Virus record (IMG/VR): IMGVR_UViG_2541047172_000012
Source: a virus
Taxonomy: Duplodnaviria > Heunggongvirae > Uroviricota > Caudoviricetes
DNA length: 5,663 bases
Strand: one strand, 5' to 3'
Shown here: positions 1 through 5,663 of the stretch, in pieces
How the letters are laid out: each line of letters starts with the position of its first letter
How positions within the stretch are numbered: position 1 is the stretch's first letter
The notes under the pieces: generated by a model
What the model saw: only the letters and a program-made list of their open reading frames with translations
What the model was told of the DNA's origin: nothing
Databases searched by the model: none
Program-made: the position numbers and the translations under genes

Positions 1-16
1 CCCTCGTTTTGAGGGA
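1..16. repeat. Partial first ori iteron (O-binding site) inside the O coding sequence
   Basis: Reverse complement of 1..17 is ATCCCTCAAAACGAGGG, the start of the lambda ori iteron consensus, with internal inverted arms CCCTC/GAGGG. Truncated by the window edge. Confidence 0.5.
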
Positions 17-365
17 TGCACCATTCTGAGATGTTTTTATTTGGTCCAAACATGCCGCCTTGCTGCTTGATAATATTCATTCTGACGAGTTCTAACTTGG
101 CTTCATTGCACCGTTTGACAGGTAACTTTGTAATCTCGCTAAGTTGAGAATCGGTGATTCTGTCCATTGGTTTATTCCACCCATAGGTTTTACGCAGAAT
201 GGCAAGCAGCACTTTAAACTGTCGCTTGGTCAGATCTGCGCCCGAATAAGCCTCAAGCAGCATATTTGATAGTCTGGCGTAACCATCATCGAGATCTGCC
301 ACATTACGCTCCTGTCCGGCAAAGTTACCTCTGCCGAAGTTGAGTATTTTTGCTGTATTTGTCAT
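1..365 (-). CDS. O: Replication initiator protein O, N-terminal 121 codons; gene continues past the window start
   Basis: Reverse-complement translation from ATG at 365..363 reads MTNTAKILNFGRGNFAGQERNVADLDDGYARLSNMLLEAYSGADLTKRQFKVLLAILRKTYGWNKPMDRITDSQLSEITKLPVKRCNEAKLELVRMNIIKQQGGMFGPNKNISEWCIPQNEG, which matches lambda O as I recall it. Absent from the ORF track because it runs off the window and the track shows another frame (325..684). Confidence 0.95.
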   Translation of the reverse strand, partial: MTNTAKILNFGRGNFAGQERNVADLDDGYARLSNMLLEAYSGADLTKRQFKVLLAILRKTYGWNKPMDRITDSQLSEITKLPVKRCNEAKLELVRMNIIKQQGGMFGPNKNISEWCIPQNE

Positions 366-1107: not shown

Positions 1108-1824
<717 letters not shown>

Positions 1825-2198
1825 AGAGGATAGATGGAGTTTAATGGCCATGAGTATCAAGCGGTCAAAAAGAAGTTCATCTATTCATTGAAAGCATAAG
1901 GCCATCTGAGTATATCCGTAATGATCTGGATATTGTCTATAACATCAATGACCGGACGATAGATATCGGTGAGCAGCGTCCTGTATGGCAGGGTGAGGCA
2001 GGTGAAAAAACGTCCTGCCATCAACAAGAATCAAGTGCATCCGCTCTCTGGACAGATGGAAAATTTATTGGATGCAAAAAGATATGAAATAACACCTGTA
2101 TAGCACGGAGCTTTCTCTGACCGATGCACTTGAAGTTGTTAGGGCTGACCCAGCCTGCTGTTTCTTTAGGTAAGAGAAAAGAGATTTAGGAGATGAAA

Positions 2199-2225
2199 GG
2201 TCGCAGAGGTGCGGCCTTTTTTATT
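2199..2225 (+). terminator. Intrinsic terminator closing the non-coding region downstream of cI
   Basis: 7-bp stem GGTCGCA/TGCGGCC (one G-U), GAGG tetraloop, followed by TTTTTTATT. Confidence 0.6.
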
Positions 2226-2234
2226 GAGAGTGGA

Positions 2235-2267
2235 TCTTGAACGGAAATTCTCAAGACTTGAGTCTTG
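2235..2267. promoter_or_regulatory. Overlapping inverted repeats upstream of the 173-aa gene (operator-like)
   Basis: TCTTGA-N10-TCAAGA (2235-2256) and CAAGAC-TTGA-GTCTTG (2252-2267) share an arm. A GCATGC palindrome follows at 2266-2271. Confidence 0.35.
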
Positions 2268-2293
2268 CATGCAAATCAATTCCTGGATAAACT
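2265..2293 (+). promoter_or_regulatory. Candidate sigma70 promoter for the 173-aa gene
   Basis: TTGCAT (2265-2270), 17-bp spacer, TAAACT (2288-2293). It sits just downstream of a terminator and about 30 bp upstream of a purine-rich RBS (AGAGAGAGAG) and the ATG at 2326. Confidence 0.3.
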
Positions 2294-2325
2294 CGATCTG
2301 AGTCAATAACTTAGAGAGAGAGCAA

Positions 2326-2847
2326 ATGGCAAAGTCAAACGTTAGCGTGCAGGCATTCAAGGACTTCCTTGAAGAGCTTATGTCGCTGAACATAATGAAG
2401 GAGGCCACCGCTCGAAATTTAAAAAACTCATCCGCTCGCCTCTTAACGGTAGTCCAAGAAGAGGAAATGGGTGATGTTACTCAGCTTGATGTGAATGAGC
2501 TTGCCGAGCGATACATCAACGCAACTGAGCCGAAGCCTAGCGACAGCAGCATTACTGCATATAAAAGCCGCATGGAAAGTGCAATCAAAAAGTTTGTAGC
2601 TTTCCAGTCTGGTGAAGAAATCCCATACACTCCGATTGACAAAGAATCCAGTGAGGAAAAAGATTTGACTGGCGAACCAACAAAAGTCGAAGGCAAGGCT
2701 AATGCACTTCATACCTATGATCTTCCAGTAGTTCTTCGACCTGAATCAGGGGTTACAGTAACGATTAAAGGCATTCCTAACGATATCACAAACGAAGAAG
2801 CCGAACGCATCTCTTCAATTCTGAAGGTTTACGTTCGGCCTCAATAA
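2326..2847 (+). CDS. Hypothetical acidic protein (173 aa); cargo gene at the position of lambda rexA/rexB
   Basis: Clean 173-codon ORF with a purine-rich RBS, MAKSNVSVQAFKDFLEELMSLNIMKEATARNLKNSSARLLTVVQEEEMGDVTQLDVNELAERY... No resemblance to RexA/RexB or any family I recognise; E/D-rich, no obvious HTH or hydrophobic segment. Opposite-strand ORFs overlapping it are shorter and lack signals. Confidence 0.7.
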   Translation: MAKSNVSVQAFKDFLEELMSLNIMKEATARNLKNSSARLLTVVQEEEMGDVTQLDVNELAERYINATEPKPSDSSITAYKSRMESAIKKFVAFQSGEEIPYTPIDKESSEEKDLTGEPTKVEGKANALHTYDLPVVLRPESGVTVTIKGIPNDITNEEAERISSILKVYVRPQ

Positions 2848-3020
2848 TGCAAAAGCATTCAGCACAATGTCCAACTCCCCAGTCCGACATTGATGCTGTT
2901 TAACCAGAGCCTCCAAAAGGAGCCCTTGTTAAGGTACACAATATTTGCGATGTAACCTTAGCGCGTCTGGTACATTTTTTCAAGCGGTTGTAGGGCTGCC
3001 GCCAATATGAGAAAACACAG

Positions 3021-3143
3021 ATGTCTACATACAATTTGAATGACCAATTCGATCGAGAAGTTCATGTGAATGCCTATGAACGGATAAGGCATGGAAATCT
3101 TGAACATGTGTGTGAGCATTATCGCTCAAGGCCACACCGCTAA
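3021..3143 (+). CDS. Candidate small ORF (40 aa, His/Cys-rich), or the body of a terminator-capped small RNA
   Basis: ATG at 3021 to TAA at 3141-3143 encodes MSTYNLNDQFDREVHVNAYERIRHGNLEHVCEHYRSRPHR, ending 7 nt before a strong intrinsic terminator. No convincing Shine-Dalgarno; a possible promoter (TTCAAG-18-CAATAT, 2979-3008) would make it near-leaderless. Confidence 0.25.
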   Translation: MSTYNLNDQFDREVHVNAYERIRHGNLEHVCEHYRSRPHR

Positions 3144-3150
3144 TCATCAA

Positions 3151-3179
3151 CCCGGCCTCCATGCCGGGTTTTCTTTTCC
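3151..3179 (+). terminator. Strong intrinsic terminator, positionally analogous to lambda tIMM
   Basis: Stem CCCGGC (3151-3156) / GCCGGG (3163-3168), 6-nt loop, then TTTTCTTTTCC. Confidence 0.75.
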
Positions 3180-3357
3180 TCTCGCCCAAAAAAACACATA
3201 ACCAATTGTATTTATTGGAAAATAAATAGATACAACTCACTAAACAACGCAATTCTGATCTCTCCTTACATCGCCGAGGCAATACACCCACGCTAAAAAA
3301 CAATACTATTAAATACAAAGCGTTGTAAAAAAACGCCCCGTTTTAGAACAAATTGTA

Positions 3358-3386
3358 TTGACCAAGTGAAGTACATATCGTACTAT
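3358..3386 (+). promoter_or_regulatory. PL-like promoter upstream of nutL and N
   Basis: TTGACC (3358-3363), 17-bp spacer, TACTAT (3381-3386), set in an AT-rich region about 190 bp upstream of N. Flanked by short inverted repeats (TACAAAGCGTTGTA 3314-3327, ACAAATTGT 3348-3356, AGTAC-N5-GTACT 3370-3384) but no lambda-type 17-mer operators. Confidence 0.5.
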
Positions 3387-3432
3387 TTAACCATCAGCAG
3401 GACGCTGGAAGCCAAATGGAACAGACTGGCAG

Positions 3433-3477
3433 GCTCTTTAAACAACGTCGACTCTCGACTACGTGGCTGAAAAGCCA
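3433..3477 (+). promoter_or_regulatory. nutL-like site: boxA (3433-3445) and boxB hairpin (3464-3477)
   Basis: GCTCTTTAAACAA resembles the boxA consensus (CGCTCTTTAACAA). Downstream, TGGCT-GAAA-AGCCA forms a 5-bp stem with a GAAA loop. Both lie in the leader between the promoter and N. Confidence 0.5.
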
Positions 3478-3575
3478 GATCACCCAACCACATAAGCTGT
3501 GGGATGCAATGCCGAAGCAACCGTCTCAGGAGGAGCTTCGAGATTGCATCGCCAAAGTTTATTCGGGAGGAATCT

Positions 3576-3848
3576 ATGTCCAGAAAAACAGAATTTAAAG
3601 GCACCGCAGCTTCTCGCCGTAGAGCTCGTCGCGCAAACCTGCAAAGTCAGGAGGCGATTAGCTCCGACAAACTACACAGGCCAACCCCATCACGAGTGGT
3701 CTTACAATGCAAACGCAAACCAGCAATGAGAGCAGAAGTAATAACACTGACAACGTTGACCAGAAAATATGAAGGCTCAACTTGTCTTCCAAATGTAGCT
3801 CTTTACGCGGCAGGCTACCGTAAATCCAAACAACTGACAGCAAGATGA
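3576..3848 (+). CDS. N: Antitermination protein N, P22 gene-24-like rather than lambda-like (90 aa)
   Basis: Start chosen at ATG 3576 with strong RBS GGGAGG (3565-3570); the track ORF begins at an upstream Met (3504) with no RBS. It has an N-terminal arginine-rich motif (TAASRRRARRANLQ) and a C-terminus CLPNVALYAAGYRKSKQLTAR that closely resembles the P22 N C-terminus as I recall it (LLPGVALYAAGHRKSKQITAR). Confidence 0.75.
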   Translation: MSRKTEFKGTAASRRRARRANLQSQEAISSDKLHRPTPSRVVLQCKRKPAMRAEVITLTTLTRKYEGSTCLPNVALYAAGYRKSKQLTAR

Positions 3849-3898
3849 CTTGTGTTGGTCGCCAGAAAATGAAATTAGGCAGCAAACCACTTATTTGA
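3845..3898 (+). pseudogene. Relic of a lambda/21-type N C-terminus in the +1 frame, overlapping the N stop codon
   Basis: Frame open from 3824; ATG 3845 to TGA 3898 encodes MTCVGRQKMKLGSKPLI, resembling the C-terminal residues of lambda N (ITCSGRQKIKGKSIPLI) and phage 21 N (VTCVGRQKIKLGSKPLI), both from memory. Confidence 0.45.
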
Positions 3899-3906
3899 GG
3901 TGATAT

Positions 3907-4158
3907 ATGGAATTTCATGAAAGTGCGATTTGTGATTTTCGCGCTAACGCAAATTCAGTAAAACCACAGCCAATTGCAGTTCTTTTTAAAACAATGGGTG
4001 CGTGGGCTGTTTTATGCTTCGCCGCTGACGACACTGACGCAAGAATGGCAATAGGACAAGAGATGGAGATGGACCCGACAAACGATGAATTCATAATTTA
4101 TGGCGCTCCATCTAATTACTTACTTGATACCTGCAACATTTACAACAAGGCTGCCTGA
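3907..4158 (+). CDS. Hypothetical small protein (83 aa), first gene after N in the leftward early operon
   Basis: ATG 3907 preceded by RBS GAGGTGA (3898-3904); MEFHESAICDFRANANSVKPQPIAVLFKTMGAWAVLCFAADDTDARMAIGQEMEMDPTNDEFIIYGAPSNYLLDTCNIYNKAA. It sits where lambda has ral or small orfs; I do not recognise the sequence. Confidence 0.65.
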   Translation: MEFHESAICDFRANANSVKPQPIAVLFKTMGAWAVLCFAADDTDARMAIGQEMEMDPTNDEFIIYGAPSNYLLDTCNIYNKAA

Positions 4159-4204
4159 TGGTGGCCTTTATTTTTGGCATAAACAACAGAATAAACACAG
4201 CACT

Positions 4205-4232
4205 GTGTATTCATTCCAACGAGTGAATACAC
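4205..4232. repeat. Perfect 9-bp inverted repeat with 10-bp spacer in an intergenic region
   Basis: GTGTATTCA (4205-4213) ... TGAATACAC (4224-4232). No adjacent T-tract on either strand, so it is not a typical intrinsic terminator. Confidence 0.5.
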
Positions 4233-4294
4233 GGAGCAATGTCGCTCGTAACTAAACAGGAGCCGACTTGTTCTGATTATTGGAAATCTTCTTT

Positions 4295-4320
4295 GCCCTC
4301 CAATGTGAGGGCGATTTTTT
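4295..4320 (+). terminator. Intrinsic terminator upstream of ea10
   Basis: Stem GCCCTC (4295-4300) / GAGGGC (4307-4312), 6-nt loop, then GATTTTTT. Confidence 0.65.
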
Positions 4321-4340
4321 ATCTGTGAGGATATGAACAG

Positions 4341-4709
4341 ATGTCAAACATCAAAAAATACATCATTGATTACGACTGGAAAGCATCAATAGAAATTGAA
4401 ATCGACCATGACGTAATGACAGAGGAAAAACTTCACCAGATTAATAATTTCTGGTCAGACTCTGAATACCGACTCAATAAACACGGCTCTTTATTAAATG
4501 CTGTATTAATCATGCTGGCGCAACATGCTCTGCTTATAGCAATTTCAAGCGACTTAAATGCATATGGTGTTGTGTGTGAGTTCGACTGGAATGATGGAAA
4601 TGGTCAGGAAGGATGGCCTTCAATGGATGGTAGCGAAGGAATAAGAATTACCGATATCGATACATCAGGAATATTTGATTCAGATGATATGACTATCAAG
4701 GCCGCCTGA
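4341..4709 (+). CDS. ea10: Ea10 protein (122 aa)
   Basis: MSNIKKYIIDYDWKASIEIEIDHDVMTEEKLHQINNFWSDSEYRLNKHGS... matches lambda Ea10 as I recall it, in the correct position upstream of cIII. Confidence 0.85.
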   Translation: MSNIKKYIIDYDWKASIEIEIDHDVMTEEKLHQINNFWSDSEYRLNKHGSLLNAVLIMLAQHALLIAISSDLNAYGVVCEFDWNDGNGQEGWPSMDGSEGIRITDIDTSGIFDSDDMTIKAA

Positions 4710-4732
4710 GCGCGGCGTTACCGCATACCAAT

Positions 4733-4756
4733 AACGCTTCACTCGAGGCGTTTTTC
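4733..4756 (+). terminator. Terminator-like hairpin between ea10 and cIII
   Basis: Stem AACGCTTC / GAGGCGTT (with one G-U pair) around an ACTC loop, followed by TTTTT. It may be a partial terminator or a structure affecting cIII translation. Confidence 0.4.
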
Positions 4757-4781
4757 GTTATGTATAAATAAGGAGCACACC

Positions 4782-4946
4782 ATGCAATATGCCATTGCAG
4801 GGTGGCCTGTTGCTGGCTGCCCTTCCGAATCTTTACTTGAACGAATCACCCGTAAATTACGTGACGGATGGAAACGCCTTATCGACATACTTAATCAGCC
4901 AGGAGTCCCAAAAAATGGATCAAACACTTATGGCTATCCAGACTAA
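4782..4946 (+). CDS. cIII: CIII, inhibitor of FtsH that stabilises CII (54 aa)
   Basis: RBS AGGAG (4771-4775); [54 protein letters not shown] matches lambda CIII. Below the track's length threshold, so it was found by manual translation. Confidence 0.93.
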   Translation: MQYAIAGWPVAGCPSESLLERITRKLRDGWKRLIDILNQPGVPKNGSNTYGYPD

Positions 4947-5058
4947 ATTCACTATCGCCACTTTTATTGGCGATGAAAAGATGTTTCGTGAGGCCGTCGA
5001 CGCTTATAAAAAATGGATATTAATGCTGAAACTGAGATCAAGCAAAAGCATTCACTAA
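4915..5058 (+). CDS. kil: Kil, host-killing and FtsZ-inhibiting protein (47 aa)
   Basis: Internal Met of track ORF 4789..5058: [47 protein letters not shown], with RBS AGGAG (4901-4905). It overlaps the cIII 3' end and the gam 5' end as in lambda. Confidence 0.9.
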
Positions 5059-5429
5059 CCCCCTTTCCTGTTTTCCTAATCAGCCTGGCATTTCGCGGGC
5101 GATATTTTCACAGCTATTTCAGGAGTTCAGCCATGAACGCTTATTACATTCAGGATCGTCTTGAGGCTCAGAGCTGGACGCGTCACTACCAGCAGATCGC
5201 CCGTGAAGAGAAAGAGGCAGAACTGGCAGACGACATGGGAAAAGGTCTGCCCCAGCACCTGTTTGAATCACTCTGCATCGATCATTTGCAACGCCACGGG
5301 GCCAGCAAAAAAGCCATTACCCGTGCGTTTGATGACGATGTTGAGTTTCAGGAGCGCATGGCAGAACACATCCGGTACATGGTTGAAACCATTGCTCACC
5401 ACCAGGTTGATATTGATTCAGAGGTATAA
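5013..5429 (+). CDS. gam: Gam, inhibitor of host RecBCD nuclease (138-aa long form; short form starts at 5133)
   Basis: [55 protein letters not shown]... matches lambda Gam. The internal start at 5133 (MNAYYIQ) has RBS AGGAG at 5121-5125. Confidence 0.93.
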
Positions 5430-5434
5430 AGCGG

Positions 5435-5663
5435 ATGAGTACAGCACTCGCAACGCTGGCAGGGAAGCTGGCTGAACGTGTCGGCATGGATTCTGTCGAC
5501 CCACAGGAACTGATCACCACTCTTCGCCAGACGGCATTTAAAGGTGATGCCAGCGATGCGCAGTTCATCGCATTGTTGATCGTCGCCAACCAGTACGGCC
5601 TTAATCCGTGGACGAAAGAAATTTACGCCTTCCCTGATAAGCAGAACGGCATCGTTCCGGTGG
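5435..5663 (+). CDS. bet: Bet (Red-beta) single-strand annealing protein, N-terminal 76 codons; continues past the window end
   Basis: ATG 5435 translates to MSTALATLAGKLAERVGMDSVDPQELITTLRQTAFKGDASDAQFIALLIVANQYGLNPWTKEIYAFPDKQNGIVPV, matching lambda Bet. Not in the ORF track because no stop falls within the window. Confidence 0.95.
   Translation, partial: MSTALATLAGKLAERVGMDSVDPQELITTLRQTAFKGDASDAQFIALLIVANQYGLNPWTKEIYAFPDKQNGIVPV

Follow-up and report, generated by a model that had tools for sequence, protein, structure and literature searches.

A lambda nutR site beside a VT2-Sakai-type N gene in a mosaic lambdoid early region joined within cI

Can one N antitermination protein serve two different types of boxB hairpin? 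The question is raised by a 5,663-nucleotide (nt) stretch of Caudoviricetes DNA, IMG/VR record IMGVR_UViG_2541047172_000012, the whole of which was analysed and is referred to here as the window. The window is a lambdoid early-regulatory region whose read-out orientation is opposite to the lambda map. Its plus strand carries a nutL site (3433-3477) with a GAAA loop in boxB and, behind it, the gene for a 90-amino-acid (aa) N antiterminator (3576-3848); its minus strand carries a nutR site (771-802) with the GAAAA loop of lambda. The initial annotation had read these elements as a P22-type N next to a variant nutL and an exactly lambda-type nutR, and had argued that either one N must serve two boxB types or antitermination on the right operon works differently. 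N, nutL and the lambda-identical nutR are all present at or close to where it had placed them. The window is very probably the early regulatory region of a mosaic Escherichia coli lambdoid prophage, in which two lineages are joined by one exchange in cI, and the pairing of N with nutR is a rare by-product of that exchange and no dual-specificity system.

The N gene is the first of the leftward promoter (pL) operon, and a boxA-boxB nut site lies ahead of it on the same transcript. Its product matches the Pfam family N_peptide (PF25694) over residues 1-90 (111.3 bits against a cut-off of 27.9, E=3.4e-32) and possesses, as initially annotated, its own arginine-rich motif near the N-terminus, AASRRRARRANLQSQ, in which SRRRARRA at residues 13-20 aligns with the motifs of the lambda, P22, HK97 and 21-like N proteins. 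The nutL site consists of boxA GCTCTTTAA (3433-3441), a spacer hairpin GTCGA-CTC-TCGAC (3447-3459) and boxB TGGCT-GAAA-AGCCA (3464-3477). The boxB proposed at the outset does fold as a tetraloop hairpin: taken alone, it forms a 5-bp stem with a GAAA loop (-7.1 kcal/mol, z=-3.4). When the nutL RNA is folded in full (3432-3476), the structure of lowest energy (-14.3 kcal/mol, z=-2.6) offers an alternative to the two-hairpin form: boxA GGCUCUUU pairs with AAAGCC, the 3' half of boxB, and the two strands enclose the spacer hairpin. For H-19B, alternative NUT structures have also been proposed. The nutR site, located between cro and cII, is identical to lambda over boxA CGCTCTTA (802-795), the 9-nt spacer and boxB GCCCUGAAAAAGGGC, and its flank shows a single difference, at 767. 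This boxB, GCCCTGAAAAAGGGC (785-771; GCCCU-GAAAA-AGGGC), folds into a 5-bp stem and a pentaloop (-9.4 kcal/mol, z=-3.1). Within the window, the lambda GAAAA nutR thus matches neither the GAAA nutL nor the class of the N motif.

The origin of this mismatch lies in the mosaic structure of the window. Positions 1-1450 are 99.4% identical to lambda, and positions 1414-5663 are 99.5% identical to Shiga toxin (Stx) phages; the interval 3300-3900 is 100% identical to VT2-Sakai and to many other Stx phages, and the N protein shows 100% identity to the N annotated in VT2-Sakai. The operators, pL, a putative nutL, N and nutR are already annotated in the VT2-Sakai record. Both parental types can be drawn from one E. 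coli O157:H7 strain, PA20. Over positions 1-1724, the window has 1 mismatch in 1724 nt to a degraded lambda-immunity prophage at thrW (L003), and over positions 1678-5663 it has 4 mismatches to a Stx-type prophage (L004). Differences specific to the Stx-type parent occupy 19 sites at 1446-1677, and differences specific to the thrW remnant occupy 6 sites at 1725-1800. Over these 25 diagnostic sites the mismatch map is one clean switch, within the 47 bp at 1678-1724 in the cI C-terminal domain, an interval identical in both parental types.

Lambda nutR would therefore stand beside the VT2-Sakai N and nutL because a single crossover inside cI joined two prophage lineages. The left arm, from 1678 to the end, would be of ordinary VT2-Sakai type, running from the cI 3' end through orf173, the pRM terminator, the Sakai-type left operators (OL) and pL, nutL, N and the terminators to ea10-bet. 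The right arm, before 1724, would be the lambda-immunity segment of the degraded O157:H7 thrW prophage, with the partial O, cII, nutR, cro, the right operators (OR) and most of cI. In this arrangement, lambda nutR would have come along with the other parent as a passenger and would not be cognate to the window N. A description of the O157:H7 thrW remnant as devoid of nutL and N proved wrong, for lambda nutL and the beginning of a lambda-type N frame are both retained there; in related thrW loci the lambda-type N is encoded as an 81-aa N36 product.

The native partner of nutL is provided by VT2-Sakai, whose nutR reads CGCTCTTTG-taacaac-GGACattcGTCC-tacg-TCGCT-GAAA-AGCGA. The two sites have a common layout, and their boxB stems differ by one G-C to C-G swap. 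Both spacers form hairpins of unlike sequence, GGAC-ATTC-GTCC in the native nutR and GTCGA-CTC-TCGAC in nutL. Since the design is shared while the letters of spacer and stem differ, structure and not sequence is conserved between the sites. Each carries a boxA-boxB spacer hairpin in addition to boxB, in the manner of the H-19B-type two-hairpin site, and their spacers are 22-23 nt long with the hairpin, versus 9 nt in lambda nutR. The GACAA pentaloop of P22-type boxB (P22 nutL is GCGCTGACAAAGCGC) is found in neither nutL nor the native nutR, the loop being GAAA in both.

In IMG/VR, 80 loci encode this N. The nutL boxB is identical in 79 of them, the remaining locus starting at N and leaving nutL uncovered, so the nutL hairpin is conserved in relatives, as the initial annotation required of it. 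At the nutR position, 74 of the 80 have the native GAAA site, 5 are uninformative, and 1 (L070) has the lambda site. That one locus belongs to L005, a 6,777-bp draft contig and the only other contig in IMG/VR with the junction of the window. The reverse count gives the same exception: exact lambda nutR occurs in 62 IMG/VR contigs, 45 of them informative, and in 44 of these it is accompanied by lambda N, lambda nutL or both; only L005 departs from this. In genome-derived loci, lambda N goes with lambda nutR (14/14), HK97-type N with GACAA nutR (6/6) and this N with GAAA nutR (11/11), and the deposited sequences of the wild lambda-immunity phages HK544 and CL707 encode lambda-type N. In more than 130 loci, the class of the N motif agrees strictly with the loops of both nut sites across the immunity region, and the junction of the window is the sole exception.

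This matching is maintained when immunity is exchanged. The loci with this N fall into five immunity clusters, and six of them (L043, L071, L072, L081, L085 and L100) combine it with a lambda-like cro/cI cassette; the native GAAA nutR is kept in 6/6. Three of them (L043, L081 and L100) were compared in detail: their cro-cI is ~92% identical to the window, and the OL operators of L043 are lambda-like. Homology to the immunity region of the window sets in at ~796, immediately beyond nutR towards cro, and homology to its left arm resumes at ~3392, where pL starts. With one module border between nutR and cro and the other at the start of pL, each regulator keeps its own site in these coherent mosaics.

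Whether N and lambda nutR ever lay on one DNA molecule is a separate matter. L005 spans the full length of the window with 99.7% identity and, differing from it by 17 substitutions and 1 indel, comes from another genome; 16 of the differing positions lie in the left arm. The junction occurs in 0 of 5,426 complete E. coli genomes and 0 of 50,697 phage records, and a 105-nt pattern spanning the diagnostic sites of both parents is missing from species-representative genomes and metagenome contigs. A longer hybrid-bearing contig, sought through the exact cI, Ea10 variant and Kil proteins among the longest blocks, with contigs of 5-10 kb outside the search, was not found, and only ordinary matched contexts were returned. 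This distribution, confined to two short draft contigs (5.7 and 6.8 kb), is consistent with an assembly chimera, in which a VT2-Sakai-type prophage and the lambda-immunity thrW remnant of one strain were mis-joined by a short-read assembler through the 47-50-bp identity of their cI C-terminal domains, and in which N and lambda nutR were never on one molecule. Both parental segments do co-reside in single O157:H7 genomes such as PA20, the junction site is a short stretch of perfect identity, and the window ends in repeated sequence, the ori iterons and bet (the latter present in many of the prophage loci compared), which are taken as typical contig break points. The 16 left-arm differences would be expected from independent assemblies of differing strains with the same mis-join. 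The clean switch over 25 diagnostic sites argues for a physical exchange, as does the second, non-identical contig, which has the same junction and reads through the iterons. It also tells against a mis-join that IMG genome 2531839234 has no parental- or reciprocal-type contig in IMG/VR, although its sister genomes have parental contigs. Natural shuffling of cI C-terminal alleles is common, which makes real recombination in this domain plausible. A chimera is, on balance, doubtful, though a possibility to be taken seriously: the juxtaposition is real in sequence, and the physical existence of such a DNA molecule is less certain. Recombinant or chimera alike, the N-nutR pairing is not a selected feature.

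The exchange within cI, to judge from the sequence, disrupts a further regulator. Because the border between the arms lies inside cI, two pairs are broken at once: N with nutR, and the lambda-type cI N-terminal domain with the Sakai-type OL. A scan of the whole window with the lambda operator consensus found no match outside OR and none near pL. In a lone prophage, pL, and hence N and kil, would be expected to escape repression by the window cI, so that a Sakai-immunity repressor would be needed in trans. The lambda right arm also looks dead. The first letters of the window (1-30) already belong to the ori iterons of O; in L005, whose reverse complement 1-666 is the region compared for these iterons, a 23-bp iteron duplication shifts the O frame, as it does in the PA20 thrW remnant. 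Two other thrW prophages (L006 and L015) encode an intact 299-aa O. The earlier proposition that one N must serve two boxB types finds no support as a property of a working phage, given that the native nutR is TCGCT-GAAA-AGCGA, that lambda nutR arrived by the cI crossover, that cI and OL are mismatched as well and that the O of the sister contig is dead. Nothing indicates that this N has evolved to serve two boxB types.

Several points weigh against the by-product explanation or limit it. The O frameshift lies 58 nt beyond the end of the window, and the deadness of the right arm is that of L005 only. The view is confined to the window, and the Q region, the integration site and any co-resident repressor lie outside it. 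In addition, cI C-terminal alleles are widely shuffled among lambdoid phages, so the two "parents" are nearest representatives and not proven ancestors; a designation of the two PA20 prophages as literal parents was softened for this reason, the "reciprocal" and "parental" allele patterns being common elsewhere. Among IMG/VR contigs (L108-L166), the Peptidase_S24 domain shows the "reciprocal" pattern in 27, the "B" pattern in 15 and the "A" pattern in 18. Its allele blocks (window 1414-1824) assort freely among phages with differing immunities and N types, and the cI C-terminal domain acts as a general recombination linker. Finally, the features on which lambda N-boxB recognition depends most are present in the N motif and its boxB, which makes functional cross-talk with lambda nutR plausible.

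This last point supports a different account, in which the recombinant is real and N serves both sites. The motif would read a GNRA-fold boxB with a U-A closing pair, and so not only the GAAA tetraloop of its own sites but also the GAAAA pentaloop of lambda, leaving the rightward operon responsive to N. The VT2-Sakai-type N would then be a natural lambda-like recogniser of the GNRA fold whose own site has a true GAAA tetraloop. A GAAA-tetraloop boxB reportedly still binds the lambda N peptide (Legault et al. 1998), and the boxB requirements of P22 and lambda are said to overlap (Cocozaki et al. 2008). The lambda GNRNA pentaloop folds as a GNRA tetraloop with one base extruded and is recognised in this form by lambda N, which requires the closing U-A pair, G at loop position 1 and a purine at loop position 3 (PMC12027372); the GNRA fold is mimicked by all known boxB pentaloops and hexaloops (PMC12550061). 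The closing U-A pair, the loop G1 and the purine at position 3 are common to both boxBs of the window. In deep mutational scanning, residues 6-11 of lambda N are the most critical, with Glu9 inert, and AASRRRARRANLQSQ shares 9 of 17 residues with lambda AQTRRRERRAEKQAQ, including the whole Arg6-8/Arg10-11 patch, the sole change in the patch falling at the inert Glu9 (PMC12027372). Because of these shared features (RRRARR versus RRRERR; U-GAAA-A), binding of lambda boxB by this N is plausible. Outside the patch, the resemblance weakens: the residue equivalent to lambda Trp18 is Glu, and that equivalent to Lys14 is Leu. The stems are unlike (UGGCU or UCGCU versus GCCCU), and the native spacer of 22-23 nt with a hairpin faces one of 9 nt in lambda nutR. 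The matching of N type and nutR loop type in more than 130 loci, broken at this junction only, argues that the classes are not interchangeable in nature. The dead O gene in the lambda arm of L005 and the cI/OL mismatch make the element look unlike a working genome under selection. Service of both sites by this N is accordingly unlikely, and it is similarly improbable that a VT2-Sakai-type N cross-recognises lambda boxB well enough for the rightward operon to respond. If it did, the lambda and Sakai specificity classes would overlap, and the junction would be a naturally occurring specificity-swap experiment.

Under the by-product explanation, N and nutL would act in cis exactly as in VT2-Sakai; we infer this activity, and its factor requirements, from family membership. 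The pL promoter (3358-3393, plus strand) was located by a promoter scan, with a -35 element TTGACC at 3358-3363, a -10 element TACTAT at 3381-3386 and a start at ~3393; it is embedded in VT2-Sakai-type OL operators, and the VT2-Sakai record annotates three operators together with pL. The pL transcript would carry boxA, the spacer hairpin and the GAAA-tetraloop boxB, and the N-terminal arginine-rich motif of N would bind this boxB. N, together with host Nus factors, would then modify RNA polymerase, allowing read-through of two plus-strand hairpins identified by a terminator scan and reaching cIII, kil, gam and bet. The first (4147-4168) lies behind N, has a T-run and resembles an intrinsic terminator; it is likely to be a target of the N-modified polymerase. 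The second (4293-4314), also terminator-like, precedes ea10, cIII, kil, gam and bet.

The classification of N as P22-type is only partly borne out. The protein ends in ...VALYAAGYRKSKQLTAR, and in a tblastn alignment P22 gp24 matches residues 67-90 only, 27% of the protein, at 79% identity. The N-terminal two-thirds are unaligned, and the P22-like arginine-rich motif (TRRHERRRKLAIE) is absent from N, whose own motif has 9 of 17 identities with lambda, 8 with 21-like, 6 with P22 and 5 with HK97 N. Alignment to the lambda, 21 and P22 N proteins thus yields a C-terminal relationship to P22 and no full-length one, and the P22-type label was rejected for the whole protein, since it describes the last 24 residues. 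Full-length similarity is found instead with the 127-aa HK97-type N (~40% identity), a type that also occurs in Stx2 converting phage I and Min27. A search of PDB sequences with N gave zero matches. In two loci (L016 and L024), a 21-like motif is fused to the same C-terminus and accompanied by a 21-like boxB; the C-terminus is thus a shared module, and the N-terminal motif switches along with the boxB loop. Translation of the sequence behind N reveals an out-of-frame relic of a lambda/21-type N C-terminus (3845-3898, plus strand). Its frame of 17 codons starts at an ATG that shares bases with the stop codon of N (ATGA) and encodes MTCVGRQKMKLGSKPLI, which resembles the lambda N C-terminus ITCSGRQKIKGKSIPLI. 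The relic is also found 3' of HK97 N and is missing after P22 gene 24 and after the N of L016; it looks like a scar left where the P22-like C-terminal module displaced a lambda/21-like one.

The remaining features of the window fit the two arms. On the minus strand of the right arm, the 5' part of the lambda-type replication gene O (1-365) is cut off at the ori iterons by the end of the window and is 99.4% identical to lambda; it is followed by lambda-type cII (398-691; identity to lambda; Pfam Phage_CII, E=1e-48), nutR and lambda-type cro (810-1010; Pfam Cro, E=6e-35). The lambda-type OR1-OR3, with pR and pRM (1037-1100), contain matches to the lambda operator consensus at 1037-1053 and 1084-1100. 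The cI repressor gene (1111-1824, plus strand; Pfam HTH_3 and Peptidase_S24) encodes a lambda-type N-terminal DNA-binding domain and a mosaic C-terminal domain. Relative to reference lambda, the lambda-type segment has cI changes T3A and K68N and two base changes in the OR1-OR2 region (positions 1117, 1323, 1056 and 1069). Public assemblies contain this cI allele extremely often (10,875 index blocks), and the exact protein normally occurs alongside a lambda-type N.

In the left arm, all on the plus strand, the rexAB position is occupied by an open reading frame (ORF) of 173 aa (orf173, 2326-2847), which is H0093 of VT2-Sakai and has no Pfam match. An intrinsic terminator of the pRM transcript (Timm, 3149-3170) was detected by the terminator scan and is annotated in VT2-Sakai. 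A 60-aa ORF (3416-3598) spans nutL and the N ribosome-binding site and corresponds to a RefSeq hypothetical protein (e.g. WP_000438343.1, PA20); it lacks a Pfam match, and its overlap with the nut RNA elements makes it unlikely to be a real gene. Behind N follow an 83-aa ORF, the two terminator-like hairpins, ea10/DUF2528, cIII, kil, gam and the start of bet. Rfam contains no nut or boxB family, and the sole match in an Rfam scan of the window is the lambda cIII thermoregulator (RF01804), full length at 4769-4827 at the cIII start (88.5 bits, E=2.7e-21).

In conclusion, the N gene, nutL and lambda nutR are known, annotated elements, and a rare recombinant or chimeric join explains their juxtaposition, which is itself of little weight. 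What remains is a small question about N-boxB specificity. The VT2-Sakai-type N, common in O157:H7 Stx phages, combines a lambda-like arginine motif with a boxB that has a true GNRA tetraloop, and is therefore a convenient natural variant for probing N-boxB specificity classes.

In comparison with known systems, the window is closest to VT2-Sakai (AP000422/AP000363), with complete identity through pL, OL, nutL and N. The same group includes the Stx1-converting phage AP005153, Stx2 II, phage 2851 and the PA series, and over the whole left arm the differences amount to 2-5 positions. VT2-Sakai differs in having its own GAAA-type nutR (CGCTCTTTG...GGACattcGTCC...) and Sakai-immunity cro, cI and OR, whereas the window is lambda-type to the right of cI codon ~200. 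With the lambda N-nut system, the window shares the boxA-spacer-boxB order on the pL and pR transcripts, the 5-bp boxB stem with U-A closing, the N motif RRRxRRA..Q.Q and, in nutR, lambda's own site. It departs from lambda in the true GAAA tetraloop of its boxB, versus the GAAAA/GAAGA pentaloop, in the 22-nt hairpin-bearing nutL spacer, and in an N of 90 aa that lacks a Trp18 equivalent, ends in a P22-like C-terminus and matches Pfam N_peptide, not N36. The 127-aa N of the HK97/H-19B type shares its C-terminus with the window N and is likewise followed by the out-of-frame relic, and the HK97 nutR has the spacer hairpin and boxB stem of the VT2-Sakai nutR; the H-19B nutR likewise carries two hairpins (PMC3526286). 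HK97 differs in its GACAA boxB loop and in an arginine-rich motif sharing 5 of 17 residues with the window N. P22 gp24 belongs to the same Pfam family and resembles the window N in its last 24 residues (LPGVALYAAGHRKSKQITAR versus LPNVALYAAGYRKSKQLTAR), whereas its motif shares 6 of 17 residues and its boxB, GCGCU-GACAA-AGCGC, stands without a spacer hairpin.

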